Below are positions 3,594 to 23,700 of a stretch of 64,000 nucleotides of DNA, one piece after another; the first letter of the stretch is position 1, and every line of letters starts with the position of its first letter. This DNA comes from a virus (lineage: Duplodnaviria; Caudoviricetes). Under the pieces are notes generated by a model. That model was given only the letters and a program-made list of their open reading frames with translations. It made no database searches and was not told the DNA's origin. The stretch is from positions 25,209 to 89,208 of the IMG/VR virus record IMGVR_UViG_3300005077_000712. The stretch is one strand, 5' to 3'. The position numbers and the translations under genes were made by a program.

Positions 3594-3908
3594 TTAAAAT
3601 ATAATTTTTGTTATTACTATCCAAGCTATAAAAAAAGTAATAATATTTCCTAAAATTTCTATAAAATCCATTTGTTCTTCTGTATATTTTGAGGCATTAT
3701 AAAATACAAAAGATGAATTTATTAATGAAGTAGCTCCAAGCATTTTTTTAAAGAACATTAATGCTAATGCTGTAGAATAATTAATTAAAAGCAATGTTGA
3801 AGAAATATATGGGGCTATACAATTCCACATATCTTGCAAAAACATTGCATTTAAAAAAAGTGAACCAAAACTCATTATTATACCAAATATTTTTAAACCT
3901 TTATTCAT
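3594..3908 (-). CDS. Membrane protein
   Basis: 104 aa with about three hydrophobic segments. Confidence 0.6.
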   Translation of the reverse strand: MNKGLKIFGIIMSFGSLFLNAMFLQDMWNCIAPYISSTLLLINYSTALALMFFKKMLGATSLINSSFVFYNASKYTEEQMDFIEILGNIITFFIAWIVITKIIF

Positions 3909-5002
3909 AAAACTTCTTCCCCCATAAAAAATATTTTACCTTTATACTTTTCTTTAAAATGAACTTTTAACTGTTTTTTTATAACAGGTAAAATTTCTTT
4001 ACCATCAAGTAGAATAAACATAATTGAACTTTCTTTTTCTTGTGCTATTTGAGTTCTTAATTCAGTTCTTTTATATTTTTTCTTTAATTCTTCTAATTTA
4101 ATAGATGCCATATTTTCTTTTTCAAGAATCCAATTAGAAAATTCATCTCTGAATCCTTCAAGCATTTTAGCTTTATCAGCATATCCATAAGTATAAAGTT
4201 CAGAAATATAATCATCAATAGATTCATTGATATATAATTCTAATATATCATTTATAGAAAACTTAGATAAAGCTCTATGTCTATTAAGATACCATTGAGT
4301 TTTAACTTTATATAGATTACTTCCATCTCCTATTACAAAACCTTCAACCCCTTCAAGAGATTTAGTATATTCTATAAATTCTTTTAAAGTGCTAAGTTTA
4401 TCATTAACATTAAAAGTATTATAAAACTGATATTCACCAGTTCTATTATTTCTTATAGCTAATGGTTGTAATTGTTGTTCTTTATATTGTATTACAATTG
4501 GATTCTCATTATCTAAAAATTCAAATAAAGGAGTTAAACCATCTTTTAATTGAGACATAACTTTTTCTTTAACTTTATCACAAGTTTTTGAAAATAGTTC
4601 AGTTGCTTTTATAGCAACTTCAGAATAAAAACTTTTTTTAGATTTAAAAATAATCTTATCATTAACTAAAACAGGCATAACTAAAGACCCATCCCATTTA
4701 GTATCAATATAATTAATTTTATTCCAATTAATTAAATATTCTTGAGTTTCAGGACGTTGATTAATATTGAAAAATTTATGATATGGTCTACAAATAATAT
4801 CACCAGTAGACATATCAAAAGTTATACCTCTACACTCTCTTGCCAAAGCAGAATTAAAAGTAGTATCAGTTTCAATCATATAAGAAATTATACCAAATTC
4901 AATACCATCAACTATTTCAGTTTTTAGTTTAATTTCTTTCTTATTCTTTAATATATCATCAAACTGACTTATATTTGTTATTATTGGAAAATTCATTTTC
5001 AT
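3905..5002 (-). CDS. rnlA: RNA ligase, T4 Rnl1-like
   Basis: ARECRGITF, RPYHKFFN, motif I KWDGS, EGFV, YKVK. Confidence 0.9.
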   Translation of the reverse strand: MKMNFPIITNISQFDDILKNKKEIKLKTEIVDGIEFGIISYMIETDTTFNSALARECRGITFDMSTGDIICRPYHKFFNINQRPETQEYLINWNKINYIDTKWDGSLVMPVLVNDKIIFKSKKSFYSEVAIKATELFSKTCDKVKEKVMSQLKDGLTPLFEFLDNENPIVIQYKEQQLQPLAIRNNRTGEYQFYNTFNVNDKLSTLKEFIEYTKSLEGVEGFVIGDGSNLYKVKTQWYLNRHRALSKFSINDILELYINESIDDYISELYTYGYADKAKMLEGFRDEFSNWILEKENMASIKLEELKKKYKRTELRTQIAQEKESSIMFILLDGKEILPVIKKQLKVHFKEKYKGKIFFMGEEVL

Positions 5003-5114
5003 GCCTCAATTCACATTCAAGTTCTTCTCTTTTAAAGTCTTCTTTCTCTCTATTAACTGCATATCTTTCAATTCTTTCTCTTTCTGAAAAGGATTTATTC
5101 ATATAATTTTTCAT
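4959..5114 (-). CDS. Small hypothetical protein
   Basis: Probable start MKNYMNK after an AGGAG RBS. Confidence 0.4.
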   Translation of the reverse strand: MKNYMNKSFSERERIERYAVNREKEDFKREELECELRHENEFSNNNKYKSV

Positions 5115-5130
5115 AGTTTTCTCCTTTGTT

Positions 5131-6018
5131 TTAATATTCATTAAGTCCATAAGCATCTTGTCTTACATCAAAAGTAAATAGACCAAGTTTATCTTGCCAA
5201 CATTCTGATAATACTTGAATCCTATCATCAAAAACACCAACAACATTAAACTTTGGTTCTATGTATTTTCTATATAACTCTTCTTTAATAATTGAATCTC
5301 TTCTGTTATCTCCTTCCTCTCTCATATAAAGATAATCATTATCAATGAGATAATAATTTAACCACATAGCTGTTTCACTTCTATATTTTGAATCTCTACC
5401 TGAAAGAACAATTATGATATAGCCTGATTTTTTTAAAGCATTTAAAATACTAATAACTGGATATATAGGAAGATCCATACCAACTTTAGTACCATCAAAA
5501 ATATCTCTATCAGGATGTTTCAAAGCTAATGTACCATCTATATCAAAAATAAATGCAGGTTTTTTATCTGATTTAACTATATAAGAAAAATCATAACAAT
5601 CTCTTTCAGGTTTATTTGCTATATATTTTTTATAAGTATTTCTTATAACTCTTTCACCAACAGAAAATGGTCTTCGTTTATCTCTTTCAATTGCATCATC
5701 AAGAGATACATCAAATCTTTTTATTTCAATATCTACTTTTGGAGATATAGTTTTAATAAACTCTATATTTTTTTTAAGAGTTTTTGGGTTAAGATTCATT
5801 TCATCTATAACAAGATTATGACCATCCCTAAGAATAGTTTTTACATTTTCTCCCCAAATTTTTTGAACAAGTTTCTCTGACTTATAAGAATAATCATCTA
5901 TCATGTGTCTAATAGCATCACGATTAACTCTTTTATAAGTTTTATTAGTTTTAAGAAATTCAGTTACCCAAGTAGATTTACCTGAGCCTTGTATTCCTTG
6001 AGTAAGTATAACTTTCAT
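5131..6018 (-). CDS. pseT: Polynucleotide 5'-kinase/3'-phosphatase (T4 Pnkp-like)
   Basis: P-loop GIQGSGKS, RVNRD, HAD motif DIDGT, VFDDR. Confidence 0.93.
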   Translation of the reverse strand: MKVILTQGIQGSGKSTWVTEFLKTNKTYKRVNRDAIRHMIDDYSYKSEKLVQKIWGENVKTILRDGHNLVIDEMNLNPKTLKKNIEFIKTISPKVDIEIKRFDVSLDDAIERDKRRPFSVGERVIRNTYKKYIANKPERDCYDFSYIVKSDKKPAFIFDIDGTLALKHPDRDIFDGTKVGMDLPIYPVISILNALKKSGYIIIVLSGRDSKYRSETAMWLNYYLIDNDYLYMREEGDNRRDSIIKEELYRKYIEPKFNVVGVFDDRIQVLSECWQDKLGLFTFDVRQDAYGLNEY

Positions 6019-6020
6019 TT

Positions 6021-6248
6021 TTATTCCTCTGTCCAATCAAAAGTTAATGAAACTTTTGATTTTTTATTTTTTTTAGATGCTTTCATTTTAAATTCTAAAG
6101 TATCATTAAATTTCAATATTAATTGTTCTTTATCTTTTCTAAGTACAAGTTCTCCACCTTTAAAGGCAGATGCCAACATTTTTAAATAATTTGAGATTGA
6201 TTTAGAATCTTGGACTGCTTTATGTTTAAAATTTAATTTTTTTTTCAT
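6021..6248 (-). CDS. Amphi-Trp domain protein
   Basis: 75 aa ending in an alternating beta pattern, KVSLTFDW. Confidence 0.7.
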   Translation of the reverse strand: MKKKLNFKHKAVQDSKSISNYLKMLASAFKGGELVLRKDKEQLILKFNDTLEFKMKASKKNKKSKVSLTFDWTEE

Positions 6249-7454: not shown

Positions 7455-7507
7455 TTGTAAGTTCCTTTTAAAAAGATTATACGCACTTCTTATAATTACT
7501 GTTATGG

Positions 7508-7723
7508 CTAATTGCCTTTTAACTTCTCCAATCGCTGAATCATTATCGCTCTGTATTTATTTGCACCTTCAATCGCTCTTACTGTCTTTATGTTGCAATA
7601 TGGTAGGTTTGTGCTTCTGTCTGTAAACCACTCATCAACTTCCTGTTCGGTAGGCAACATAGCCATAACATCGGTTATATTCAATACCTTGCTTTCGTCT
7701 TGTTTTTTAGTTTTGTTTTTCAT
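7508..7723 (-). CDS. Cassette ORF, hypothetical
   Basis: Starts inside attC 7663-7794 and reads through the core as LNITDVMAM. Confidence 0.7.
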   Translation of the reverse strand: MKNKTKKQDESKVLNITDVMAMLPTEQEVDEWFTDRSTNLPYCNIKTVRAIEGANKYRAIMIQRLEKLKGN

Positions 7724-7794
7724 ATCAAGTTTTTTTTATTATTCAAAATTTGTGTTTCAAAATCGGCACTAAATATAGCCGAGAAACGTTAGGC
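7663..7794. other. attC-like site 1
   Basis: Minus strand: GCCTAAC GTTTC TCGGCTATATTTAGT...ATTGAATATAACCGA T GTTATGG. Confidence 0.8.
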
Positions 7795-8058
7795 GACATG
7801 CAACCTTAATCTATACATAATATCTATAAATTTGACAAGATTTTCCGTGCTTAAAAACTTAATCGGAATTTCTCCAGCATCATACATTTTTACTATTTCC
7901 CGCACGTCTCCTAACACGGCATTTGAGTCCGCTTCGCACATTGCCTCAATTATTACATCAGCTAAAAATCCGAACACTTTCGGCGGTATTTCCTGAATGT
8001 TACCATCACCGTCATTTGCAAAATTTTTTATTATATTTAATAACTTTTCTCTATACAT
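7789..8058 (-). CDS. Cassette ORF, hypothetical
   Basis: Starts in the loop of attC site 2, crosses the core as SNAVLGDVR, stop is the TAA of GCCTAAC. Confidence 0.7.
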   Translation of the reverse strand: MYREKLLNIIKNFANDGDGNIQEIPPKVFGFLADVIIEAMCEADSNAVLGDVREIVKMYDAGEIPIKFLSTENLVKFIDIMYRLRLHVA

Positions 8059-8109
8059 AACTTTCTTCTGTTAATTCGGCAACGTCTCAAATGCCGGGTA
8101 ATGTTGTAC
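7909..8109. other. attC-like site 2 (long, coding loop)
   Basis: Minus strand: GTACAAC ATTACC CGGCATTTGAG...CTCAAATGCCG T GTTAGGA; 11-bp perfect arms. Confidence 0.8.
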
Positions 8110-8110
8110 G

Positions 8111-8392
8111 TCATTTGAGCTTTGCCCACTTTGTAATATTCTTAAACGGCTCAAACCGTGAATTATCAAAACAATACATTCCTGCACACAAATAAACCAC
8201 TGGTCCACCCTCATCACATACCCATGCTTCAACGGTAAACTTTGACATCGCACATCCACCAATTCCCCCTCTCGGACCAGCTGTAGACCCGAATGTTTCT
8301 GGATAAGCATAATAATCTAAATCCATATACTCGACTTTTCGATCCTTAAGTATATCAATAACTTCTTGCGGTGGTTTGTTTTGATAATTCAC
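8111..8392 (-). CDS. Cassette ORF, hypothetical
   Basis: 93 aa (YPETFGSTAGPRGGIGG); AGGAG RBS. Confidence 0.7.
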   Translation of the reverse strand: MNYQNKPPQEVIDILKDRKVEYMDLDYYAYPETFGSTAGPRGGIGGCAMSKFTVEAWVCDEGGPVVYLCAGMYCFDNSRFEPFKNITKWAKLK

Positions 8393-8437
8393 GGCCTTTC
8401 TCCTTTCATGTATTTTATTCTGTGACGCTCAAACGAC

Positions 8438-8518
8438 GCACAACACTCGCTAAACGCTTCGCTTCGCTCGGCCTTCGGCACATGGCTTCGCCACGTCGTT
8501 TAGCTCTGCATGTTGTAC
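8438..8518. other. attC-like site 3
   Basis: Minus strand: GTACAAC ATGCAGA GCTAAACG...CGTTTAGC GAGT GTTGTGC. Confidence 0.85.
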
Positions 8519-8531
8519 GAAAGACGCACGA

Positions 8532-8732
8532 CTAATACTCTATTGGTTCATCCTTGTATTCATAAGTGTAATTACCGGTTCCCGTCCCGCTCGTTGTTAA
8601 TACGCTATGAAGTGCCTCATGCCCGCAAATAACACATCGCTTGAATGACGAGTCTCCGTGCCATACATGTTCAGGTTCTACGGTTGACCCACATTTTTTA
8701 CACTTATAACTTTGTTCAATCTTTATATACAT
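8532..8732 (-). CDS. Cassette ORF, small zinc-ribbon protein
   Basis: CKKC...CVIC; AGGAGG RBS. Confidence 0.7.
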   Translation of the reverse strand: MYIKIEQSYKCKKCGSTVEPEHVWHGDSSFKRCVICGHEALHSVLTTSGTGTGNYTYEYKDEPIEY

Positions 8733-8756
8733 AAATCCTCCTTTCGTGCGTCCTTC

Positions 8757-8847
8757 GTACAACAAAGCGTGAAACGAAAAACGACTTTATTTTATTTACA
8801 ACACTTTTACTATTCAGCGTTCTTCGTTTACGCTTGAATAGTTAGCG
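8757..8847. other. attC-like site 4
   Basis: Minus strand: CGCTAAC TATTCA AGCGTAAACG...CGTTTCACGCT TT GTTGTAC; one extrahelical base. Confidence 0.85.
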
Positions 8848-9071
8848 AACATTGCCATCGACTTGTTGCTTGTACCAATCCGCTCCCTCGCAAAATATGT
8901 GCATAGAAATACTTTCCTCAACGCCATATCTTTTGGCCAGCCACTGATATTTTTAATACGTTGTTTATTCAAATCCCCCGCATAATGGTCGGGCAACGAT
9001 CCGCTAACACGGCGTAAAACGAAAGCCGTCTTTATTATCTCAATTATCTTTCTGTACCATGTAGTTTTCAT
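8814..9071 (-). CDS. Cassette ORF, hypothetical
   Basis: AGGAG RBS and ATG inside attC site 5; crosses the core as LRRVSGSL. Confidence 0.65.
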   Translation of the reverse strand: MKTTWYRKIIEIIKTAFVLRRVSGSLPDHYAGDLNKQRIKNISGWPKDMALRKVFLCTYFARERIGTSNKSMAMFANYSSVNEER

Positions 9072-9125
9072 CTTGATTAAACTCCTTGTATTATCGGCCT
9101 ATCGTTTACGCCGGAATAGTTAGGC
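9002..9125. other. attC-like site 5
   Basis: Minus strand: GCCTAAC TATTC CGGCGTAAA...TTTACGCCG T GTTAGCG. Confidence 0.8.
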
Positions 9126-9326
9126 GACATTGCCAAACCCTTTTATGTATTTAATACATTCTTGGAATCCAGCCACAAAATATACTTGTTCCTTTTCTGA
9201 TATATTTAGTCCCTCGCTTATTCTTACTGCAATACCACCTGCTTCATAAATATTTGGCAACGGTCGCCTAACAGGGCGTATATTCAATTTCGCCCTTATT
9301 GCGTTAGTAGTATTACTTGACCTCAT
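9120..9326 (-). CDS. Cassette ORF, hypothetical
   Basis: Starts in attC site 6, crosses the core as NIRPVRRPL, stop is the TAA of the core. Confidence 0.65.
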   Translation of the reverse strand: MRSSNTTNAIRAKLNIRPVRRPLPNIYEAGGIAVRISEGLNISEKEQVYFVAGFQECIKYIKGFGNVA

Positions 9327-9392
9327 AAACTTATCCCTTTAATATGATTATTTCTATCATGCGAAACTAAACATACGCCCCATCAGTTATAT
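9266..9392. other. attC-like site 6
   Basis: Minus strand: ATATAAC TGATG GGGCGTATGTTTAGTTTCGC...GCGAAATTGAATATACGCCC T GTTAGGC; 20-bp stem with 3 G-T pairs. Confidence 0.85.
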
Positions 9393-9400
9393 GACATGGC

Positions 9401-9940
9401 TTAACTCTGGCTCGCCTTCCGTGGCTCGCTTTTTATTATCCTATCAAAACATATTTGTTTCGGCAATAAACCTCTACAAATATAAACACTCGAAAACGGA
9501 GGATTCAAACTCGGTTTTTGTTCTGTATAATCTTTAAAATATGCCACCCTTTTATTAAAATAAAGTATTTCAAAATCATTTGCTTCAAACATAGAAAATC
9601 TTTTTTCAGACTCGAATAATCCTACAACTCCAACAAGCATAGCAAATTTTTTATTCAACTTAAACAGTCTATCAAATACTTCGCCTTTTAAACTATAAGG
9701 AGGATTTGAAATAATAACATCACAATCAATATCAATATTAAAAAAATCATCACCGTTTGAAATATGCGTATTTTTTACGGCATTGCCATTATTCTTTAGC
9801 ATCTTTACAAAGTTACTTTCGTTCGTATCAAATGGACACCATACTGCTAAATTTGAATTTACATATTTCAATAAAGGCTCAATAGCATATTCAGGTGTAT
9901 AAAATTCATCCTGTTTTTTTGTAATTAAGTCAAGTTTCAT
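9401..9940 (-). CDS. Adenine-specific methyltransferase carried as a cassette
   Basis: DEFYTP, VWCPFD, IISNPPYS; GGAGAG RBS before MKLD. Confidence 0.8.
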   Translation of the reverse strand: MKLDLITKKQDEFYTPEYAIEPLLKYVNSNLAVWCPFDTNESNFVKMLKNNGNAVKNTHISNGDDFFNIDIDCDVIISNPPYSLKGEVFDRLFKLNKKFAMLVGVVGLFESEKRFSMFEANDFEILYFNKRVAYFKDYTEQKPSLNPPFSSVYICRGLLPKQICFDRIIKSEPRKASQS

Positions 9941-10007
9941 AAACTCTCCATACGTGTTCGGCATCCTGCCTCACACTAAATATATTTTTTGTTACAATCG
10001 CCACGTC

Positions 10008-10073
10008 ATATAACAACGGGTAAGCGTTCGCTTCACACACCCTTCGGGTGTCGCTTACCCTGTTCAGTTGTAC
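10008..10073. other. attC-like site 7
   Basis: Minus strand: GTACAAC TGAACA GGGTAAGCG ACACCCGAAGGGTGT...CGCTTACCC GTT GTTATAT. Confidence 0.85.
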
Positions 10074-10083
10074 GAAAGACGGC

Positions 10084-10290
10084 TTAACCCCCACCATAAA
10101 CATAAAAACCTTCTGCATCTTTAATCTCTCTCGGCTCAAGCGATAAATCAGCATGGGTATATCCCAACTTTTCAAGAACAAGTTTTCTCGCTTGCTCTGA
10201 ATTTTCAGCATATGCGAAGGCTATGCCTGCTGTATAATCTCTTAATACATTTTCCCATACATATAATTTTAATTTACTTATTGCTTCCAT
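10084..10290 (-). CDS. Cassette ORF, hypothetical
   Basis: 68 aa; GAGG RBS. Confidence 0.7.
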   Translation of the reverse strand: MEAISKLKLYVWENVLRDYTAGIAFAYAENSEQARKLVLEKLGYTHADLSLEPREIKDAEGFYVYGGG

Positions 10291-10348
10291 ACTAAATTAC
10301 CTCACTTTATATTTTACTTTCAATGCGTATTCTCATAGCCTTGAATAG

Positions 10349-10618
10349 TTAGCTAAAATGCTCGCTAACTTCTGCCATTTCAATATCATATTCTAATTCC
10401 ATTTGCTTAGCTCCATACCCATTAGACATCCAGTCTATAATATCTGTAAGTTTAGAAACTCTTTCTCGCAATGCTCGCACTTCAGCTAACACGGTGTCAT
10501 GCGTCATTGATTCCCTACATTTATTACAATATATAATTCCTATTGGATCACCATAATCTTTTCCACATTTAACATAATCGCTATGACAATATCTTAATAA
10601 GGCACCACATCCCTTCAT
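10349..10618 (-). CDS. Cassette ORF, Cys-containing hypothetical
   Basis: GGGAGG RBS and first ~43 codons lie inside the attC-like site at 10484-10666; crosses the core as HDTVLAEVRA; stop is the TAA of the core. Confidence 0.7.
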   Translation of the reverse strand: MKGCGALLRYCHSDYVKCGKDYGDPIGIIYCNKCRESMTHDTVLAEVRALRERVSKLTDIIDWMSNGYGAKQMELEYDIEMAEVSEHFS

Positions 10619-10666
10619 AATATCCTCCCTTGAATATCAACGACGCATACGCAGTCTCAGTTAGGC
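10484..10666. other. attC-like site 8 (long, coding loop)
   Basis: Minus strand: GCCTAAC TGAGA CTGCGTATGCGTC...GACGCATGACACCG T GTTAGCT. Confidence 0.75.
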
Positions 10667-10675
10667 GAAAGACGG

Positions 10676-10912
10676 CTAAACCTTTCGTATTTCAAAATTT
10701 ATTATCGAATATTTAAAATAAGCAATAAACAGTCTATATAATGCTATTATCAATAATTCTGTACTATAGATTCTCCACCCCGGATCGCCAATGTTTACAC
10801 ATAAAACTTGATATTTCCATCCATAACTTTCTCCTTTTAGTCGCCGTCCTTCGCCCAACACTCGGCAAACGCCATGAGTACACAGCGTCTGCCTCAGCAT
10901 GTTAGCAGCCAT
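10676..10912 (-). CDS. Cassette ORF, small membrane protein; start uncertain
   Basis: Open frame GWKYQVLCVNIGDPGW...; the AGGAG-preceded ATG near 10822 is one base out of frame. Confidence 0.4.
   Translation of the reverse strand: MAANMLRQTLCTHGVCRVLGEGRRLKGESYGWKYQVLCVNIGDPGWRIYSTELLIIALYRLFIAYFKYSIINFEIRKV
10853..10907. other. attC-like site 9 (short)
   Basis: Minus strand: TGCTAAC ATGCTGA GGCAGACGC...GCGTTTGCC GAGT GTTGGGC. Confidence 0.75.
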
Positions 10913-11144
10913 TTAAGACAAAAAACTTTTTAGCCTTATCTCTGAACTTGCCAACTCCAGATAATCTTACCATAAAATCATCACCTATGGCTTCAATAAA
11001 CTCACCTTCTTTTAAGTGTGGTTCATCTCCAATCGCACTTTCATAAATCGGATAGAATAAACGGCTGCTAACAGCAGGTATATTCAATGCCGAGCATCGA
11101 GTGTAATCAGAGTTTAGTTTTTCAATCAAGCCTTGTGTTGTCAT
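10902..11144 (-). CDS. Cassette ORF, hypothetical
   Basis: Starts in attC site 10, crosses the core as LNIPAVSSR, stop is the TAA of the core. Confidence 0.7.
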   Translation of the reverse strand: MTTQGLIEKLNSDYTRCSALNIPAVSSRLFYPIYESAIGDEPHLKEGEFIEAIGDDFMVRLSGVGKFRDKAKKFFVLNGC

Positions 11145-11205
11145 ATAATTTTGTATTTCAAATTTGGCACTAAATATACCTGCTCATACGCTTAAAAAGT
11201 TAGCA
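11066..11205. other. attC-like site 10 (same family as site 1)
   Basis: Minus strand: TGCTAAC...AGCAGGTATATTTAGTGCC...GGCATTGAATATACCTGCT GTTAGCA. Confidence 0.8.
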
Positions 11206-11216
11206 GAAATAACCGC

Positions 11217-11396
11217 CTAATCTTTAGTGATAATCTTATATGTATAGTAATCACTATCTTTAAACATATTCATTCTATTCTTATATAAATCTTTTAAAGA
11301 TTGCTCAACTCTTTCTTTTGCTTTCTTGCCACGAAATATTTTATATAATTTATATTCATCAAATGGATTTACTCGTCTTAATATTCTATACTCCAT
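11217..11396 (-). CDS. Cassette ORF, basic hypothetical
   Basis: MEYRILRR... after AAGGAGG. Confidence 0.65.
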   Translation of the reverse strand: MEYRILRRVNPFDEYKLYKIFRGKKAKERVEQSLKDLYKNRMNMFKDSDYYTYKIITKD

Positions 11397-11425
11397 ATAC
11401 TCCCTCCTTTGATGGCGGTTACATC

Positions 11426-11479
11426 CGCTAACATCGAGCAAGCGACATTGAAACGATCACCTACCTTTTTTAGTTAGAC
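11426..11479. other. attC-like site 11 (short)
   Basis: Minus strand: GTCTAAC TAAAAAA GGTAGGTGA...TCGCTTGCT CGAT GTTAGCG. Confidence 0.75.
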
Positions 11480-11483
11480 GTAA

Positions 11484-11651
11484 TTATTCGCCAACTTTTT
11501 CTGATGATTTAGCTCCACCGCACATCCCCATTATCATTGATAATTGTCCTATCATCTGCAATCCAAGTTCTTCATGACTTTTACTTTTCGGTATGCTATT
11601 TATTGCACACTCGCATAACTCAATTATTTTATCATATACATCATCTTTCAT
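11484..11651 (-). CDS. Cassette ORF, hypothetical
   Basis: MKDDVY... after AGGAGG. Confidence 0.65.
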   Translation of the reverse strand: MKDDVYDKIIELCECAINSIPKSKSHEELGLQMIGQLSMIMGMCGGAKSSEKVGE

Positions 11652-11684
11652 TTTAATCCTCCTGTAATAATGGCGAATAACTAC

Positions 11685-11738
11685 GCCTAACATCGGGCAA
11701 GCGACATTAAAACGGTCGCCTGCTCTGTTTAGTTAGGC
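11685..11738. other. attC-like site 12 (same family as site 11)
   Basis: Minus strand: GCCTAAC TAAACA GAGCAGGCGAC CGTTTTAAT GTCGCTTGCCC GAT GTTAGGC. Confidence 0.8.
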
Positions 11739-12209
11739 GAAACGGCTTAAAAATATTTCCATCATTTTGACCGCCTCTTCTCTATCACTGTTTTTTTCTC
11801 CCTCTGATAAATATTTATATTCTGTTTTCATTTGTCTTTTCCATCTATCAACTGCCCACTTCGGAATAACTAAATTTTTCTCTCCGTCTGGTTCTGCTAA
11901 TGTTGGCTCAAGATAAATCTCATAGCACTTGCTAAATAAATACTGCATCCATCCAGACTATTGACTATGCGCAAATGCGGCCAGCTCCTCTTTTAGTTCA
12001 GCCGTATCGCATAACACAGCATTAGACGAAAGAGGCTTTTCGCATTCTACCGCTTTATCCAGTATCCTATTCAATGGATCAGAATAATCTTTATTTTTTA
12101 AATACTCTATATCTTTCTCCATCCTTTCTATTCTCTCTGTTAACGCTCGCACTTCAGCTAACAGAGATATTTGATATAATTTTAAAATAGATTCTCTCAA
12201 ATCATCCAT
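11733..12209 (-). pseudogene. Chimeric cassette ORF interrupted by an in-frame TAG (11958-11960)
   Basis: ORFs 11958-12266 and 11733-11948 are in the same frame: ...AAFAHSQ*SGWMQYLFSKC...; the TAG sits where the family motif HxQWSGWM has Trp (TGG). Confidence 0.65.
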
Positions 12210-12252
12210 ATATTCCCTCCTCAAATTTTCGCATATTCTCAATATGTTGTAC
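12156..12252. other. attC-like site 13 (coding loop)
   Basis: Minus strand: GTACAAC ATATT GAGAATATGCGA...TCAAATATCTC T GTTAGCT. Confidence 0.7.
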
Positions 12253-12262
12253 GAAAGACTGC

Positions 12263-12433
12263 TCAATCTTTTTTATATTTTAATTCTAACTCTTTATAAA
12301 AACTACATATTGCACAACAATCTAACCCACAATCACAAAATGTTCGTTTGCCAGTTTTAATATATTCTTCTTCAATCCAATCTTGATAACAAGCCCAACA
12401 TTCTCCGTGTCCACAACCGCATCTCTTTTCCAT
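12263..12433 (-). CDS. Cassette ORF, 56-aa Cys-rich protein
   Basis: MEKRCGCGHGECWAC...CDCGLDCCAIC; AAGGGGG RBS; not in the ORF track. Confidence 0.65.
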   Translation of the reverse strand: MEKRCGCGHGECWACYQDWIEEEYIKTGKRTFCDCGLDCCAICSFYKELELKYKKD

Positions 12434-12463
12434 TAGCTAACCCCCTTCTATTCGTTGCCCTTC

Positions 12464-12531
12464 GTACAACACTTGCTAAATGCCACTTCGCTACATGGCT
12501 TTGATACGTTGTTTAGCTCTGCATGTTGTGC
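12464..12531. other. attC-like site 14 (same family as site 3)
   Basis: Minus strand: GCACAAC ATGCAGA GCTAAAC...CATTTAGC AAGT GTTGTAC. Confidence 0.85.
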
Positions 12532-12542
12532 GAAATTGCGCC

Positions 12543-12884
12543 TCACTCACTGCTCTTAAAATCTTCTTCTGGACTAAACCAATCGTTGTTAACGATATGA
12601 CCTATCGCATGCACCTTGCTATGCTCGCACTTTACCCGTATTGTTTTACCCTTCAACTGACTCCATTTTGAAACTTCCGCTATCTGCATTACCCTGAAAA
12701 TAAAATGTCCCGCTACAGACTCTAACTTGTAGTGCGTAAAGCTTTTCGGCAAATATAGCGCATACCCTCCAAACCCCTGACCGATCCCGCCATAATTAAG
12801 ATTCACCCACGCAGACAGACACCCGTGGTCATCATTTGTAATTTCCGCTGACTCAATAATCGCATTTCTGATTTCTAATTCCAT
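12543..12884 (-). CDS. Cassette ORF, conserved phage hypothetical
   Basis: NAIIESA...DHGCLSAWVNLNYGGIGQGFGGY; AGGAG RBS. Confidence 0.7.
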   Translation of the reverse strand: MELEIRNAIIESAEITNDDHGCLSAWVNLNYGGIGQGFGGYALYLPKSFTHYKLESVAGHFIFRVMQIAEVSKWSQLKGKTIRVKCEHSKVHAIGHIVNNDWFSPEEDFKSSE

Positions 12885-12929
12885 TTCTAATCTCCTATTA
12901 ATTAAGCAACGCCTCAAATACCATCTCTG

Positions 12930-13568
12930 TTAGTCGGCATTGCTTAAATATTTTTCTAATTCTTTTTCAAGTGCTATTACAATTCTCTCCAAACTTGCTC
13001 TGGTATGCTCCCTGAAATTATCTTCTCGTAACAGTATTTTCATTGTATCAAGTTGAGTCATAAGATGGATAAAATCAACTTGTTCTATCAAAACTTTGCC
13101 TAATAAAGAATCATGAGTTTCAGCTTTCGGCAAATTTTGAGGAATTACTTTATTTATTAAATCTTCTATTCGCTGACATAGTTCTGGTCTATTATCAGCA
13201 TAATCTTCCAAAAGTCCATTTACAATAATTTTTGATACTTCTCTTGAATCTATTTTTTTATCCCCTCTTCTATACTCGTTTAAAAAATCATAGACATCTG
13301 ACATTGATTCAAACTGTTTATGATAATCTTTAAATTTTTCATTAAAAGAATTTAATTGATCTTTTTCACATTGTTTTTCAAATTCAGGATCTTCAAGTTT
13401 TTTAGTATAAAAATCTGTTAGTCCACTACATATACCACATCCACCGTCACCATATTTCCCATGTTCGCACCAACCATTATCTGTTGATAAATCTTTTTCC
13501 TCTTGCATTGCTTTATCTATTCCTTTTTGAACTTTAGATTTATCATATTTTAAATCTTCTATTTTCAT
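12930..13568 (-). CDS. Hypothetical protein; its stop is part of the last attC half site
   Basis: 212-aa ORF ending GCC GAC TAA C. Confidence 0.65.
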   Translation of the reverse strand: MKIEDLKYDKSKVQKGIDKAMQEEKDLSTDNGWCEHGKYGDGGCGICSGLTDFYTKKLEDPEFEKQCEKDQLNSFNEKFKDYHKQFESMSDVYDFLNEYRRGDKKIDSREVSKIIVNGLLEDYADNRPELCQRIEDLINKVIPQNLPKAETHDSLLGKVLIEQVDFIHLMTQLDTMKILLREDNFREHTRASLERIVIALEKELEKYLSNAD

Positions 13569-13572
13569 TTCT

Positions 13573-14661
13573 TTATTGCTTCTCTTCTTTCAATAAAAAT
13601 TCAGGATTAATTACTTTAAAACTTGTAAATGGAAGATCTATACTCCTAAACACAAGCCCTTCTCTATCTTTAAGAGTATTAAGGACACTCTTTCCATAAC
13701 TTTCTTTTACAACACTATTTACATCAGAAAAAATAAATTTTTTTGTATCAATAATTGGAACAAGTTTTAAACCTGTTTCGTCTATAAATCTAATAATTTC
13801 ATTATATTGAAAATATTCATTTTTGTCAATATTAAATACATTAAATATATAGAACTCATTTTCTTTTAACTCATAAGGATTACCTTGAATCTTTGGCCCA
13901 ATAATTTCACCTTGAATGGCAATATTCATTTTATGCTTTTTACTATATTCTTTAAGAATAAAATCAATATTATATTTTTTAGCTATATTAAAATAAGCAT
14001 TATCTTTACTATTTGAAAGATTAATATTTCTTGAAGCAAATCCAAATTTACCTTTATTAAACCAAAAAGAAGAACTCATACCATCAAGTTTTTCAGTTAA
14101 ATAAAATACCCTGTTCTGATTATTCCATATAATAGATGGAATAGATTGTATTCTTGTTTCATCAGTTTTTCTAATAAATGATGGGAATCCCTTCTCTTTA
14201 TCCTCAAAAAATTTAAAATAAATTGTTCTAAATACTTTAAACTTAAAAAAGAATTTAAAGAGTTTAGATTTCTTATGATTAGTATTAAAAGCTGTTTGTT
14301 CTTCAACTAATTGAGGATCATATTTTTTAATACCAAGTATATCAGTAATATCAACACCTTCTTTAGCAACTATTTTAAAGCCACTATCTCTTAATGATTG
14401 AATAGGAATTATAAGTCCCTGACTGATCTGACCACGAAGTTTAATTATTCTAACACGATATTTTCTTTCTTCAAGAAATTCAAACATAGGTATTTGAGGG
14501 ACTATAGAATCAGTCTCCATATAGCAAACAAGATCACCAACATTAAATTCACCTTTTTTAACTACAACTTCCCATCCAAGGACTTGAGCTACTTCAATTT
14601 TATCTGCTCCTTCAATTGGACGTATTGATATTATTTTTTGTATGGTTGCTAATTGTCTCAT
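13573..14661 (-). CDS. RNA ligase, DRB0094 family
   Basis: MRQLATIQKI...IEGADKIE...KLRGQISQGL, TEKLDG, QGEIIG, REGLV. Confidence 0.9.
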   Translation of the reverse strand: MRQLATIQKIISIRPIEGADKIEVAQVLGWEVVVKKGEFNVGDLVCYMETDSIVPQIPMFEFLEERKYRVRIIKLRGQISQGLIIPIQSLRDSGFKIVAKEGVDITDILGIKKYDPQLVEEQTAFNTNHKKSKLFKFFFKFKVFRTIYFKFFEDKEKGFPSFIRKTDETRIQSIPSIIWNNQNRVFYLTEKLDGMSSSFWFNKGKFGFASRNINLSNSKDNAYFNIAKKYNIDFILKEYSKKHKMNIAIQGEIIGPKIQGNPYELKENEFYIFNVFNIDKNEYFQYNEIIRFIDETGLKLVPIIDTKKFIFSDVNSVVKESYGKSVLNTLKDREGLVFRSIDLPFTSFKVINPEFLLKEEKQ

Positions 14662-14663
14662 TT

Positions 14664-15017
14664 TTATACCTCATTTATTATTTCATTTGCAATTAATAAT
14701 GCACATTGTTCACATCTTGTTACTAAATCAATTTTTGATTTATTTATATCAACTTTATACTTTCTTTGGTATTCTGATAAATAAGAAATATCAGGGATTA
14801 TATAAGGACTTTTATGATTCATTCCTCTTCTTAACATTTCTTCTGCTAATTCATCATGTCTTGTTTGCATTGATTCAGGCTCAATTTGACCTAATTCAAT
14901 TCTTTTATTTATAGAGTGCTTTTTCTCGAAGTTATGCTTATGTTTATGAATTTCTCCATGTTCACCAATGAGATGTTTATTACAAAGTAATTTTGGGTCT
15001 ACCATCCACATTCTCAT
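14664..15017 (-). CDS. denV: Pyrimidine-dimer DNA glycosylase (endonuclease V)
   Basis: MRMWMVDPKLLCNKHLIGEHGEIH...RHDELAEEMLRRGMNH. Confidence 0.85.
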   Translation of the reverse strand: MRMWMVDPKLLCNKHLIGEHGEIHKHKHNFEKKHSINKRIELGQIEPESMQTRHDELAEEMLRRGMNHKSPYIIPDISYLSEYQRKYKVDINKSKIDLVTRCEQCALLIANEIINEV

Positions 15018-16890
15018 TTATTCCTAACCTATCCTCAATAATTTTACAATATTCTTCACTTAATTCACAACCAATTGCATTTCTATTTAATTCCTTTGCA
15101 ACAACTAATGTAGTACCTGCACCTGCAAATGGGTCAAGAATTGTATCATCTATATATGAAAACATTTTTATACATCTTTTTGCAAGTTCTTTTGGAAACA
15201 TTGCAGGATGCCCAATTTTTTTCATCTGTGTCTCAGGTGGAAATTTCCACAAAGCTAATGACCAATCTATAAATTCTTCTTTAGTTAAATCAGTTTCACC
15301 TTTTCTGTTTAACTTCTTATCTTCTTTTGCAAATACTAATATATGCTCAAAAGGTGTTGGAAAGGATGGGCAAGATGGCGACATAAATGAACCCCAGGAA
15401 CAATTATGGAATATTACTTTACCACTATAACTTTCATCTTCTTCTACTTGCAAATTGCAAACATCAATGTTTTCCACATATTCTTTTGTAATTTCTTTTA
15501 TTTTATAAAAGCCATAATGACTTCCTATTTTGCTTTTATTATATCTATATTTAAAATTATTATTTATATCTTCATTTAAGACATTTTTTTTTATTTTATC
15601 AATAAATTTTCCATATATTCGTAACACATAAGCATCACTATTACCTTTTATAATTCTTCCACTTTGTAACATTGTATCTCTATTATTTTTTTTATAAACA
15701 GAAGATAATATTTTAAGTCTTAATAAAATATCTCTTATTTGGTAACATAGTTCTTTAGAAATGGAAACATAACCAACTTCTGTTTCACTAATATACCCAT
15801 CACTTCTTATTAATCCTTTTATTAATTGTTTTTGTAAAAAAAATGGTGCTTGAAATAAAAATGGATGTATCTTTTTATTTTTTGCTAATTTACCACCTAA
15901 AACTTCTAAAATTTTAGGCAAAACTTTTTTTGATGATATACAAATACGATTTAAATTTTCTCTTTTTTCATAAAAAAAACTCCAATTAAATTCTTTACAA
16001 ATATTTTCAACATCTTTACAATAATTCGTTTCATTTAGACCAAAATCTATTCTTATTGTTGTATCTTTATGCGTAGATCCATCACCTATATAATAACCTA
16101 ATAATCTAAAAAAACCTTCAGAGTAATAATTTATTTTTTCGTTAGTTATTTTAGATAATCGTTCATTAAAATTTTCAACATTCCCATGATATTGAGTTGT
16201 ATATTTTGGAACTATTGCATACCACTCACCGTTATTATATAATTCTTCTGGAGTTTTCCACAAAAAATTCCAATTTACTCTTTTTTTTGGAGTATATTTT
16301 CCACATCTTCTTTCTAATGGGGAAACATAAATTTTATGACCTTCAGTTAATACAATATCTTCTCCAAAACTTGATTTTATCTTATAAATAAACCCACTAT
16401 ATTTATTTCTAAATATATTTTCAACTTTTTTAAATCTTCTATTATGAGTTAAAACTTTATCACCAATTTTTATATTTTGTATTTCTATATAACCATTATC
16501 TGTATTTATCAATTCATCAGGTAATAAACACCTATTCCCAACTTGAGACTTTTCCCATATAATATGTGTCATTGGTATATATGTTAAATTAACCATAAAT
16601 TGAATTATATCAGAACTAGTCGGGACTCCACCGTTGCGGCCATCACCAATATTTATAACTACACGACCACCTTTAACAAGTTTCATATATATAAGAAAAA
16701 ATATAGATTTAAGCCAATTAATATATTCTTTATGGTCTTTATTATCATTATAAAGATTATAAGGATTTTTATTATATTTATTATTTCCTAAATCAACATT
16801 GTATGGTGGAGATGTAACAACTAAATGCACACTATCATCTTGAATAGTGTGCAAAGTTTTAAAGCAATCTCCTTGTAATATTTGTATCAT
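14980..16890 (-). CDS. N4-C/N6-A DNA methyltransferase containing an intein
   Basis: VVTSPPYN; HPAMFP...ILDPFAGAGTT; probable start MIQILQGD. Confidence 0.9.
   Translation of the reverse strand: MIQILQGDCFKTLHTIQDDSVHLVVTSPPYNVDLGNNKYNKNPYNLYNDNKDHKEYINWLKSIFFLIYMKLVKGGRVVINIGDGRNGGVPTSSDIIQFMVNLTYIPMTHIIWEKSQVGNRCLLPDELINTDNGYIEIQNIKIGDKVLTHNRRFKKVENIFRNKYSGFIYKIKSSFGEDIVLTEGHKIYVSPLERRCGKYTPKKRVNWNFLWKTPEELYNNGEWYAIVPKYTTQYHGNVENFNERLSKITNEKINYYSEGFFRLLGYYIGDGSTHKDTTIRIDFGLNETNYCKDVENICKEFNWSFFYEKRENLNRICISSKKVLPKILEVLGGKLAKNKKIHPFLFQAPFFLQKQLIKGLIRSDGYISETEVGYVSISKELCYQIRDILLRLKILSSVYKKNNRDTMLQSGRIIKGNSDAYVLRIYGKFIDKIKKNVLNEDINNNFKYRYNKSKIGSHYGFYKIKEITKEYVENIDVCNLQVEEDESYSGKVIFHNCSWGSFMSPSCPSFPTPFEHILVFAKEDKKLNRKGETDLTKEEFIDWSLALWKFPPETQMKKIGHPAMFPKELAKRCIKMFSYIDDTILDPFAGAGTTLVVAKELNRNAIGCELSEEYCKIIEDRLGINENVDGRPKITL
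15403..16530 (-). mobile_element. Intein with LAGLIDADG endonuclease (376 aa)
   Basis: N-terminus CLLPDELI, block B LTEGH, LLGYYIGDG and IKGLIRSDG, C-terminal HN followed by Cys+1. Confidence 0.9.
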
Positions 16891-17222
16891 TTTGCAAAAT
16901 TCCATTTACTTGAATAATCTATAGTTTCGTATTCACCAAGTTTTATTTCTTGATTTATATTTTGTAAAACTATTTGTAACGCTATTTTTGTTTCTAAATG
17001 CAATTTATCTAATTCTTTTTCCTGTTCTTCTGTAAGATCGCTATCATCATCTTTTGATCTCAATTCAAGTATTTCAGCTATATCTCTAATAACATCAGAA
17101 TTACCATAAGGACGTTTACAATTTATTGAAGGCGCACCATATTCACAGTCCCACCAACTTACATACATATTTCTTAATAGTATAAGATGTTCTTCTCTTA
17201 AAATAAATGTTTTTTTATTCAT
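16887..17222 (-). CDS. Conserved phage hypothetical protein
   Basis: CKRPYGNSDV; probable start MNKK (the track start lies inside a terminator hairpin). Confidence 0.65.
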   Translation of the reverse strand: MNKKTFILREEHLILLRNMYVSWWDCEYGAPSINCKRPYGNSDVIRDIAEILELRSKDDDSDLTEEQEKELDKLHLETKIALQIVLQNINQEIKLGEYETIDYSSKWNFAK

Positions 17223-20792: not shown

Positions 20793-23700
20793 ATGGCAGA
20801 AATATTAAGTAGAAATGATGTAAAACAAGCATGGAAACAAATAGATCGTAAGTTAAAAAGAGTTACGACAGATACAGAAATTGTAGGTGAACTTAATACT
20901 TCATTAGTCCCAACACATATGCTTCCTCTTGAATTAGATGATAATTATACTGCTTTAGGCGCATTATCAGCAAACAATATATCTCAATTACAAGAACAAC
21001 TTGAACTTGATAAATTAAATAGAACAACAAGATATGATAGATTACAAAGTGCTATGGAACATCCTGAAATTGATGGTTCTCTTTCTATATATGCTGATGA
21101 AGCAACTACAGAAGACCAAGATGGTATTACTATTCATGTTCAACATCCTGACCAAAAGGTTCAAGAGATTGTTGAACAATGTTTTGAAAGAATAGGCATT
21201 GAAGAAAAGGCATGGCAAATAGTAAAGAATTTTTGTGGTTATGGTGATGAATTTTATGAAGTTGCAATTTCTAAAACTGTTGATTCAATTTTAAAAATTG
21301 ATAAACTTCCTAGAAAAGCAGTTGAAAGGGTTGAAGAAAATAATATATTAAAAGGTTTTAAATTTAATAACGAATCACTTGATAGTGAAAATCAATTTTT
21401 TACATACCAAATTAATTATCAATCACAGCAAGAACAAGAAGAAGAATTAATATATCCATTTAGAATACTTCATTTTAAAACTAATTCAGATAAATATGGA
21501 GTATATGGTCAAGCAATTATTGATACAATTATTTCTACTATTGACCAATTAAAAATGATGGAAAAGGCAATGGTTGTTGCAAGGGTGACAAGAGCTGCCG
21601 AAAGAAGAATATATACAATTGATGTTGGAAATTTACAAGGTGAAAAAGCTATTAAATATGCTAATCAAGTTGTAGCTAATTTTAAAAATAAGAAAAAACT
21701 TAGTTTTGGTTCAGAAACATCAAGAACACTTGATTTACAAAAAGATGTTTTTGGAACTGTAGAAGACCTTGTAATTCCTAAAAGACAAGGATCTGAAGGA
21801 AATACAATTACTACATTAGAACAAGCTTGCCTAAGTTTAGAAACAAAAATTGATTTATTAGACGGAAGAAGTTTACCACTAAAAGATATAATTAAAGAAT
21901 ATAATGAAGGTAAAGAAAATTGGGTTTATTCTTGTGATCCTATAAATGGTAAAATAGAGCCAGCATGTATTAGTTGGGCAGGCGAAACAAGAAATAATGC
22001 AGAAGTTTTAGAAATAACTTTAGACAATAATGAAAAAATAATTTGCACACCAGATCATAAATTTCCTATAAAAGATATTGGTTTTATAGAAGCAAAAGAT
22101 TTGAAAGAAAACCAATCTATGATTCCTTTATATAAAAGAAAGTCTAAAGAAGGATATGAAGAAATTTTTAATAATTATAATAAAGAATGGGAATTAACTC
22201 ATAGACTAGTGCGAAAACATATTGATTTGCCAGAATATATTTTTAATGAAAGTTATAAAGATAATCCCAAAACAATAACACATCACAAAAATTTTAAAAA
22301 AGACGTTTATAATAGAGTTGGACTTGGTTTAATCAAATATAGAAAAGAAAATAAAAATTGGCATGATAATTATCCATCACCACCTGTATGGGATAACCAA
22401 AAAGTTATATTTGACCAAAAACTTTTAAATTGGTTTATAGATATTGTTGCAAGCAATAAATTGTATAACAAAGAACAAGCTGTAAATTATATACAAAGTA
22501 ATTGTAATAATTTCCTTAATTATTTTTTTGAATTAAATAAAAAGCAAGATGGAAAAATATCAAAATTTGTACCACATTTTTCAATAAATTATTTACAAAA
22601 GCTTTTAATATTTGGAAATTTTAATGGGTGGAAAAATTTTAAAGATTCTTATAATTATAATAATCATAAAATAATTTCTATTAAAACTTTAAATGAAAAA
22701 ATAAATACGGGAACAATAACAGTTAACCATAGGTTCCATACATTTGCTTTAAGTTGTGGTATTTTTACTAAAAATTCAAATTTAGGGGAAACATCGGATC
22801 TTGAATTTTTAAGAGATAAAATATTTCCTGCTCTTGGTATTCCAAGACAATATTTTTATGATGATACATTTGCAAACGCAAATACAAATCTTTCATCTAA
22901 ATCTGTTCCATTTGCTAAAAAAATTAAAAGAGTACAAAGAGCATTTTTAACACCTTGTTATAAAATAGCAATCATTGAATTAAAATTAAAAGGAATCTCT
23001 AATGAAAAAATTAAACAATTAGTTCTTTTAATGAATAATCCATCTAATATAGATGATAGAGAAAAAATAACTCTTGAAACTGAAAGATGGAATTTAATTG
23101 CTGCTATTAAAGGTTTAAATGCTGAAAAAACATTTTTTCCTGATTATCTCATCTATCAAGATTTTCTTAAAATGAATAAAGATGAAATAGCAATGTTAAT
23201 GAAATTAAATATTATGCAAGATAATGGTCAAAACCCATTTGATATATTTGATATTGATGAAAAACCTGAGCTTGCAAAAGATTTAAATTTGCAACCAGGA
23301 GCAGGTGGCGGCGAAGCAGGTGCTATGGGTGGTGGTATGCCTATGGGTGGTGGAGAAATTGGAGGAGAACTTGGTGGTGGAGAAGGAACAGAGATAGGTG
23401 GTGGAGAAGAAGTTGAAACTGAAATACCACAAGAAGTTAGAGAAAAATTAGGACCTCCTCCGACTGAAGGTGGTGGCGAAAAAGCAGAAGCCAAACCTGA
23501 AACAGCTTCAGCAGATATTTATAAAAAAGATAAGAAGATTTATGCAGATGATTTAAAGAAACAAGTTGAAATAAAGAAAAGTAAAATTTTAAATAAATTA
23601 TCAAGTTTTATGGAACAACATAAAATTGAGATTGAAATTGAAAGAGATGAAGATATTTATAGGGAGATGTTATTAAAAACTAAAAGGGTTTCATTTTCTG

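Follow-up and report, generated by a model that had tools for sequence, protein, structure and literature searches.

Positions 7501–12936 (minus strand) of a 64,000-nucleotide stretch of viral DNA from IMG/VR record IMGVR_UViG_3300005077_000712, hereafter the window, hold a 5.4-kb array of gene cassettes, which is probably an orphan (recombinase-less) member of an integron-like cassette system common to Flavobacteriales-type bacteria and their phages. The window covers bases 25209–89208 of the 89,208-bp record, and all coordinates given here are window coordinates. An earlier note, made from the letters of the window, had described the array as a set of integron attC sites within a T4-like phage genome. 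The nature of the phage is borne out by a domain search, which identified a Gp23-family capsid protein, Portal_T4, PNKP and Rnl1 in what is a T4-type myovirus of about 25% GC; its genes further include those for a tail sheath, a large terminase and Mre11/SbcC-type nucleases, and there are two RNA ligases. With cassettes, folded sites and chimeric junctions, the integron reading describes the workings of the array correctly, but it is wrong on its membership, as the sites are not canonical attC sites and are probably not IntI substrates. The AAC/GTT cores, the paired inner arms and the chimeric sites all agree with integron sites, but extrahelical bases, spacers, outer stems and the side on which the hairpin sits do not.

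The array consists of 16–17 units that abut directly at AAC with no spacer, each running from just after one AAC core through the next AAC core, and its genes and sites read 5′ to 3′ on the minus strand. There are 17 xxxxAAC cores, one decayed AAT core and 15 GTTxxxx cores, which delimit 14 complete imperfect palindromes (span 54–201 nt, inner stems 5–21 bp, loops 4–158 nt) and four half or decayed sites (12929, 12021/12015, 10348 and 7501), and re-analysis thus returned the same counts as the earlier note. The inner stems of the 14 sites are ungapped and have no bulges, with 144 Watson-Crick pairs, 23 G.T, 2 A.C and 1 other, and the outer stems measure 13–21 bp. The asymmetry beside the cores that had been claimed is also present: spacers are 4–14 nt on the AAC side and 0–8 nt on the GTT side, and the AAC side is the longer one in 13 of the 14 sites, the exception being S3, where the placement of the stem by the script was ambiguous. 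At least four unrelated sequence families of sites occur within the array. Both array ends carry a bare AAC core (12929 and 7501), as is expected if AAC-ending units insert 3′ of AAC.

Early simple stem scans gave a signal inseparable from the AT-rich background, and an arm-matrix test and a covariance model were used instead. The model, R1, was trained on six short sites of the window together with three sites of P12002L, an isolated and fully sequenced Polaribacter phage. Sites with long loops are unscorable by R1 (S11–S13: E about 7), and R1 counts are therefore lower bounds. The site grammar can be written as xxxxAAC, 4–8 nt, stem-loop-stem, 0–4 nt, (T)GTTxxxx, and one subfamily has the loop CGTTTTAATG. 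R1 found nothing significant elsewhere in the window outside the array, and an Rfam search gave no match in the window. The cores and sites are as follows.

12929, 12525, 12246, 11732, 11473, 11199, 10901, 10660, 10348, 10067, 9386, 9119, 8841, 8512, 8103, 7788, 7501 (minus strand): AAC core ends
12021 (minus strand): decayed AAT core
12470, 12162, 12015, 11691, 11432, 11072, 10859, 10490, 10014, 9272, 9008, 8763, 8444, 7915, 7669 (minus strand): GTT core starts
12929–12935 (minus strand): S1, first AAC core (GACTAAC), overlapping the stop codon of the 212-aa backbone open reading frame (ORF); upstream boundary of the array; the L-module that follows is decayed
12464–12531 (minus strand): S2, complete, 68 nt, family A, spacer ATGCAGA; R1 41 bits
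12156–12252 (minus strand): S3, complete, 97 nt; ribosome-binding site (RBS) and ATG (12209) in the loop; GTT arm identical to that of S8 over 16 nt
12009–12027 (minus strand): S3b, decayed fused site (AAT core, 5 nt, GTTATGC) within ORF 11958–12209; its GTT arm pairs with the AAC arm at 11732
11685–11738 (minus strand): S4, complete, 54 nt, family D; R1 51 bits; loop CGTTTTAATG
11426–11479 (minus strand): S5, complete, 54 nt, family D; R1 47.5 bits; stem with five G.T wobbles
11066–11205 (minus strand): S6, complete, 140 nt, family B; loop holds the ATG (11144) of the 80-aa gene
10853–10907 (minus strand): S7, complete, 55 nt; R1 45.5 bits
10484–10666 (minus strand): S8, complete, 183 nt; RBS and ATG (10618) in the loop
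10348–10354 (minus strand): S9, half site with AAC core; the unit after it has neither inner stem nor GTT arm
10008–10073 (minus strand): S10, complete, 66 nt, heading the methyltransferase unit; R1 41 bits
9266–9392 (minus strand): S11, complete, 127 nt, family B; ATG (9326) in the loop
9002–9125 (minus strand): S12, complete, 124 nt, family C; AAGGAG RBS and ATG (9071) in the loop
8757–8847 (minus strand): S13, complete, 91 nt, family C
8438–8518 (minus strand): S14, complete, 81 nt, family A; R1 40 bits
7909–8109 (minus strand): S15, complete, 201 nt; ATG (8058) in the loop
7663–7794 (minus strand): S16, complete, 132 nt, family B; ATG (7723) in the loop
7501–7507 (minus strand): S17, last AAC core (CCATAAC), the end of the last unit and downstream boundary of the array; no recombinase gene follows it

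The ends of the units reveal how the array is built. When the last 16 nt up to each AAC are compared with 15 candidate arms, the best partner is the GTT arm of the same unit in 13 of 14 cases (13–15.5 of 16 positions), and this partner arm lies one gene upstream, whereas the AAC and GTT arms that adjoin each other in the same palindrome pair only at background level (7–11.5 of 16). The inverted repeats I1, I3, I8, I11 and I12 display the same own-unit pairing. This is the chimeric-site signature expected from circular units inserted by crossover at the core. Under a stricter filter for extended unit-end pairing, 12 of 13 genome-wide matches fall inside the array, while shuffled sequence yields a mean of 2.3 for the whole 89 kb. 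A Vibrio integron carried on a phage (MK672802, L018) served as a control array, and its 16-nt outer-arm pairing is not enriched (7 vs 4.7 by chance), because canonical R boxes are only 7 bp long.

The mismatches in the stems are strongly biased, since on the sense strand there are 41 G.T and 3 A.C pairs (binomial P about 8e-10), divided 18:1 in the outer arms and 23:2 in the inner stems. The same preference for G.T over A.C is seen in the arrays of two other phage records, G001 and G004, and of the phage contig L015. The bias shows selection for folding of one strand, although it does not indicate which strand recombines. Its use as a marker of the recombining strand was dropped, as in the Vibrio control, too, the ORF-sense strand gave the better fold when RNA parameters were used.

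The claim that the units are shufflable accessory modules is upheld by the match between their ends and also by a unit found in several genomes, with breakpoints at AAC wherever the core is kept.

10901–11198 (minus strand): shared unit, made up of hairpin S6, GTT arm, body and AAC arm; encodes an 80-aa protein
10902–11144 (minus strand): cassette gene of the shared unit, 80-aa protein

This unit recurs at 84–93% nucleotide identity in G001 (55 kb, 40% GC) and G002/L006 (33 kb), which are complete phage records, in L014, a Mu-like prophage of a 4.5-Mb Bacteroidota genome, and in L015 and L016 (L015/L016/L019, phage contig from a Flavobacteriales metagenome-assembled genome). It is the only DNA or protein that the record of the window (G000) has in common with the otherwise unrelated G001 and G002. 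In the window, G001, G002/L006 and L015/L016, the similarity ends exactly at the terminal AAC and begins, at its upstream side, just after an unrelated xxxxAAC core; the hairpins downstream of the unit are unrelated between the window, G001 and G002. In the prophage L014, both cores flanking the unit are decayed. A second unit, common to G001 and G004 (like G003, a further phage record), likewise ends at AAC. Given these breakpoints, a hairpin is inherited together with the gene that comes after it, an arrangement that mirrors that of an integron cassette.

As had been stated for the 64 kb, no tyrosine recombinase is encoded here: PF00589 has no match in the whole 89,208-bp record, and neither have PF00239 and PF01797. 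The connection to an enzyme comes from relatives of the sites. R1 matches 6 of 151 Flavobacteriales genomes at 33–46 bits, four of them with CGTTTTAATG or a near-identical version of the S4/S5 loop; chromosomal and phage sites on which the model was not trained score 33–46 bits, and most of those examined have the same or a near-identical loop. In G028, a Flavobacteriales chromosome, the gene for a 275-aa tyrosine recombinase lies 130 nt beyond a site, a single cassette and an AAC core, in the same orientation. This was the only one of seven host tyrosine recombinases with an R1 site in the surrounding region. The G028 enzyme is a member of a large conserved Flavobacteriales family of about 274 aa with PF13495 and PF00589, in which the catalytic R-K-H-R-H-Y residues are invariant in 12 of 12 aligned members; judged by its sequence, this Xer/IntI-like recombinase looks active. 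A 272-aa homologue in Zobellia uliginosa (about 48% identity to that of G028) adjoins at least five sites of the same grammar (L127 1–7900), three of which are near-identical 91-nt GC-rich copies, and the cargo of this array is defence-like, including a reverse transcriptase with PRTase-CE and HEPN_Cthe2314. Another two homologues are encoded close to contig ends, at a distance of about 220 nt, and in one of these loci (L128) an AAC core is found just upstream.

The same family occurs in phages. With the G028 recombinase as the only query sequence, viral contigs gave no match, but an alignment of 12 recombinases retrieved 207 relatives in viral contigs. Among the best 41 of these 207 loci, all nine R1 matches are upstream of the recombinase gene and on its strand, for which the chance expectation is about (1/4)^9. 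In L164 and L142, which are low-GC phage contigs, the recombinase (264 aa in L164) is encoded at the end of a row of small ORFs that are sense-oriented and have family-D sites. By NCBIfam models, the enzyme falls between IntI and XerA/XerC/XerD and stays under all cut-offs. Its match to the IntI model TIGR02249 is confined to model positions of about 2–181 and 237–315, with 152–194 bits against a cut-off of 265, which means that it is without the stretch inserted in IntI, and the lack of this stretch may go together with the absence of extrahelical bases from the sites. Chromosomal cassette ORFs run antisense to the sites and diverge from the recombinase gene, which corresponds to the integron bottom-strand layout on the AAC-cleaved strand. 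In the phages (the window, L164 and L142), ORFs and sites have the same sense, with the hairpin at the head of the gene; thus, the phage version is mirror-imaged with respect to genes. We found no published description of cassette arrays of Flavobacteriales and their phages that are associated with an Xer-like recombinase.

These findings can be combined in a mechanism. Read in the sense of the gene, a unit comprises a spacer of 4–14 nt, the hairpin, a spacer of 0–8 nt, GTT with an arm of 13–21 nt, the gene body and a complementary arm ending in AAC. In the excised circle, both outer arms and the hairpin would stack into one long imperfect stem, which follows the logic of a folded attC site. 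A recombinase of about 265–275 aa would then cut at AAC on folded single-stranded DNA and insert or excise units as IntI does. This enzyme could be supplied by the host, by a co-infecting phage or by the unsequenced part of the genome, as the CheckV completeness of the record is 41% and 59% of the phage genome lies outside it. Service by a host IntI or by a recombinase encoded elsewhere had been proposed in the earlier note; the first half of the proposal is not supported, since none of the 301 sampled Flavobacteriales genomes had a TIGR02249 match above the cut-off and a different enzyme stands beside such arrays, whereas action in trans or from elsewhere is plausible. The cargo may consist of phage accessory or anti-defence genes, and families B and D together with the shared unit point to the Flavobacteriales as possible hosts.

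Several observations weigh against this interpretation. Catalysis in trans is assumed, and the complete phage genomes that bear sites (G001, G002 and P12002L) contain no recombinase; tyrosine and serine recombinases and Y1 transposases are all missing from G001–G005, from the record of L092 and from P12002L. There is also no candidate recombinase beside the array of G001, whose neighbours include a primase-helicase and an HU-like protein. (The HU/IHF-family DNA-binding protein is encoded at L007 13296–13829 of G001, about 3 kb upstream of the cassette array.) On chromosomes, adjacency of sites and recombinase was seen in two genomes, and five other loci with matches (L114–L118) have no recombinase nearby. 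Four of these (L114–L117, in G028, G048, G121 and G055) are solitary S4/S5-family sites of 36–46 bits that lie between ordinary genes without an array, their neighbours including a protein sorted by the type IX secretion system, a glyoxalase and a Dyp peroxidase. Furthermore, exchange also takes place at or near GTT: G003 and G004 have the same hairpin and an identical leader peptide with different bodies, and G001 and G004 have the same body behind hairpins with different loops, so that a single crossover point cannot account for everything.

The reach of the comparisons is limited as well. No close relative was found in which cassette order could be compared, and the relatives of the flanking RNA ligase among viral and metagenome contigs are at most 55% identical, none of them with an array. 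No site of family A or C was found in any other genome, and the external links run through families B and D alone. In viral contigs, exact searches for the motifs of families A, C and D gave no match, a loosened family-B pattern gave 46 matches of which one (L092) looked genuine, and the family-B motif with 2 mismatches matched 401 Flavobacteriales genomes no more often than a reversed-pattern control. Finally, the core genes of the phage use Shine-Dalgarno sites, an uncommon feature among Bacteroidota, and some of the cassettes have them and others do not.

The array has about 16 small ORFs, against about 18 in the earlier note, all on the minus strand, so the co-orientation described earlier holds. 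Only four of them have family matches, namely one DNA methyltransferase and three members of PHROG families of unknown function.

9401–9964 (minus strand): cassette gene for a 187-aa DNA methyltransferase (phrog_799), in a unit bounded by matching arms at 10014 and 9386

In six sites (from S3, S6, S8, S11, S12, S15 and S16) the RBS, the start codon and the first 20–50 codons lie inside the loop, and consequently the distal arm and the GTT core are translated. The outer arms bracket each ORF, one just upstream of the RBS and the other just after or over the stop codon. Strong GGAGG sites precede the cassette starts at 12209, 11651, 11396, 10618 and 8732, while the family-B units (starts 11144 and 7723) have A-rich leaders without a Shine-Dalgarno sequence, and these mixed translation signals suggest that the cargo derives from hosts with different initiation habits. 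ORFs 10349–10618 and 11958–12209 share the peptide ..LLAEVRAL.ER.. and identical 16-nt GTT arms (at 10490 and 12162), and their units appear to be paralogous; ORF 11958–12209 reads through the decayed fused site at 12009–12027. Homologues of cassette genes in other phages (L029, Enterocloster phage CB473P3) are found without such sites. One cassette also contains a perfect 19-nt inverted repeat (8156–8174/8376–8394), with arms in the start region and near the 3′ end of ORF 8111–8392, which is separate from the AAC/GTT system.

According to the main rival, the stems act at the RNA level, closing cistrons, presenting start codons or governing processing and stability in a polycistronic mRNA, and the modules are swapped by homologous or illegitimate recombination in the manner of PeSL, the early-promoter and terminator stem-loop motifs of T4-type phages. 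The wobble bias on the transcribed-sense strand, the starts and RBSs in the loops of six sites and the bracketing of each ORF by the outer arms are all compatible with such a role, and PeSL-mediated shuffling is documented in T4-type phages (PMC4122927, PMC2839356). A similar exchange is seen among the present phages: L015 8786–9300 and L016 1151–1400 differ by one gene replacement between contigs that are 96–99% identical, and the only flanking feature of this replacement is a short repeated leader (..CACAGAACAA..ATG), without AAC/GTT hairpins, so that these phages also exchange genes in another, PeSL-like way. Nevertheless, the rival is weakened at several points and we regard it as unlikely. 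AAC/GTT is invariant at the base of every stem in unrelated phages and in bacterial chromosomes, the units abut without spacers and their breakpoints fall at AAC in several independent contexts. The chromosomal ORFs are antisense to the sites, which therefore would not fold in those mRNAs, and the sites are tied by position and strand to a recombinase gene. In addition, neither sigma-70 promoters (25 vs 21.8 expected) nor intrinsic terminators (5 vs 2.9) are enriched.

It is improbable that the array is a canonical CALIN (cluster of attC sites lacking integron-integrases), i.e. a set of true attC sites captured from, and serviced by, a host IntI. The R″-L″…L′-R′ geometry is that of integrons, several cores (GCCTAAC/GTTAGGC) agree with RYYYAAC/GTTRRRY, and chimeric sites are known in integron arrays (PMC4889954). 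Over the whole array, GCCTAAC (four cores) and GTCTAAC (one) fit RYYYAAC, and GTACAAC, TGCTAAC, ATATAAC and others do not, although AAC/GTT is invariant. Canonical attC sites have two or three extrahelical bases near L″, on the arm that faces the cleaved AAC, and unpaired central spacers of about 5–6 nt per arm (PMC5027507), but the inner stems here are devoid of extrahelical bases, and their asymmetric spacers place extra bases on the AAC arm of the breakpoint strand, which is a geometry unfavourable for IntI (PMC5027507). The extended outer-arm pairing has no counterpart in the Vibrio integron, the hairpin travels with the downstream and not with the upstream body, and neither the 89-kb record, in which no intI or attI was found beside the array, nor the sampled Flavobacteriales genomes yielded the IntI for which a search had been suggested. 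P12002L provides evidence on both sides. HattCI flagged one of its sites as attC (P12002L_attC1), yet of six phage attC sites assayed with IntI1 the other five recombined and P12002L_attC1 alone gave no verified recombinants (PMC9892861). This very site has the present grammar and the loop CGTTTTAATG of S4, which it shares with the Flavobacteriales chromosomal sites, and direct reading of the P12002L early region shows many more sites of this grammar than are annotated.

Still less probable is another enzyme acting on single strands, either a host HUH (IS200/IS605-type) transposase working by peel-and-paste or junction-resolving or palindrome nucleases of the phage, with the units as non-autonomous hairpin-ended elements that insert 3′ of AAC. 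Folding is strand-specific, the units end in AAC and sit 3′ of AAC, three complete phage genomes have no recombinase, SbcC/Mre11-type nucleases are encoded in the window and L015 has a TnpB-like gene. On the other hand, PF01797 (Y1 transposase) and PF00239 (serine recombinase) are absent from G000–G004, the 3′ end of the unit has no local hairpin, unlike the ends of IS200/IS605 elements, and the association of the sites with a recombinase indicates a tyrosine recombinase. The last alternative, a misassembly joining bacterial integron DNA to a phage contig, can be dismissed with near certainty despite the GC content of 0.33–0.41 over 8–13 kb against 0.19–0.30 (about 0.25) in the flanks, an enrichment already reported in the earlier note, as co-oriented T4-type phage genes lie on both sides in one contig, three cassette proteins match phage-only PHROG families, and P12002L and many independent viral contigs have the same architecture.

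With regard to the surroundings, the array is located between the RNA-ligase and 212-aa genes and a YggL-like gene, and the flanking genes comprise an RNA ligase, the 212-aa ORF, the YggL-like protein and Dam. RNA-repair genes occur on both sides, and the window also holds inteins and a homing endonuclease.

3905–6036 and 13573–14661: RNA-repair genes on either side of the array (Rnl1-type ligase, PNKP, PHA02142-OB/RNA-ligase protein)
14980–16905 (minus strand): N6/N4 DNA methylase with an intein that has a LAGLIDADG domain
20793–23810 (plus strand): T4-type portal gene with an intein (Intein_splicing, residues 357–635)
32269–33954 (plus strand): 561-aa HNH/homing endonuclease (phrog_559, E = 1.6e-129), directly 3′ of the major capsid gene

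Integrons are regarded as a bacterial device defined by IntI and by attC sites with extrahelical bases. The array described here is evidence for a sister system whose recombinase is a different and shorter one and whose sites are built differently, and which occurs in unrelated phages and in Flavobacteriales chromosomes. Taking all parts together, the chances seem roughly even that a second, IntI-independent system operates in Flavobacteriales-type bacteria and in many of their phages (T4-type, jumbo), with a short recombinase and sites free of extrahelical bases, that it is mirror-imaged in phages, where leaders are swapped onto bodies, and that orphan arrays are serviced in trans during infection and draw on a common pool of accessory and anti-defence genes. 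An active system would let virulent phages, including T4-type ones, gain, lose and reorder small accessory genes site-specifically, and it would link phage and host gene pools; methyltransferases are seen among the phage cassettes and defence-like genes among the chromosomal ones. Because start codons lie inside the recombination site, the sites could represent a natural device for the shuffling of protein leaders, and recombination at two cores would both swap genes and join different N-terminal leaders to different bodies. It also becomes testable how the hyperplastic regions of large phages are built, and whether structure-specific recombination of single strands arose more than once from Xer-like enzymes.

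Among known systems, XerCD in phages of the CTX-phi type is similar in that a Xer-family recombinase acts on a hairpin of one strand and performs one strand exchange that is resolved by replication; there, a whole phage is integrated at dif, and no gene-cassette arrays are formed, whereas no dif-like sequence is seen here. The likeness to integrons and CALINs is much broader and extends to single-gene units, imperfect palindromes, AAC/GTT cores, paired inner boxes and chimeric sites, and to a cargo that consists here mostly of ORFans and a methyltransferase; moreover, the chromosomal relatives have the recombinase at one end of the array and antisense cassette ORFs, as integrons do. The differences are equally consistent. 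The 14 inner stems lack extrahelical bases, the spacers are asymmetric, and the outer stems extend over 13–21 bp instead of 7. In an integron cassette, the ORF precedes its own attC and the crossover lies at G|TT of R′, whereas here the upstream hairpin is kept and the unit ends at AAC. Genes that start inside the recombination site, with the core translated, have no counterpart in classical integrons, and the enzyme of about 265–275 aa does not have the stretch inserted in IntI.

The earlier note had left room for phage-borne arrays having been reported already, and this is indeed the case, as 17 attC clusters were described in phages, with at least two attC sites required per cluster and three in the detailed example, none of them near the size of the present array (Qi et al. 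2023, PMC9892861). Those clusters (PMC9892861) are likewise integrase-less, occur in virulent phages and often accompany methyltransferases, but they were read as ordinary IntI sites, while the present array has 14 complete and four half sites and another recombinase family stands beside such arrays. PeSL motifs (Arbiol 2010, PMC2839356; Comeau 2014, PMC4122927) are similar in that stem-loops surround small ORFs in hyperplastic regions and mark places of gene gain, loss or replacement. PeSL copies, in which a conserved early promoter is joined to a terminator stem-loop, are nearly identical in sequence, and homologous recombination is their presumed mode of action, whereas in the present array the sequence varies, the structure is conserved, AAC/GTT is invariant and a site-specific recombinase is associated with the sites.

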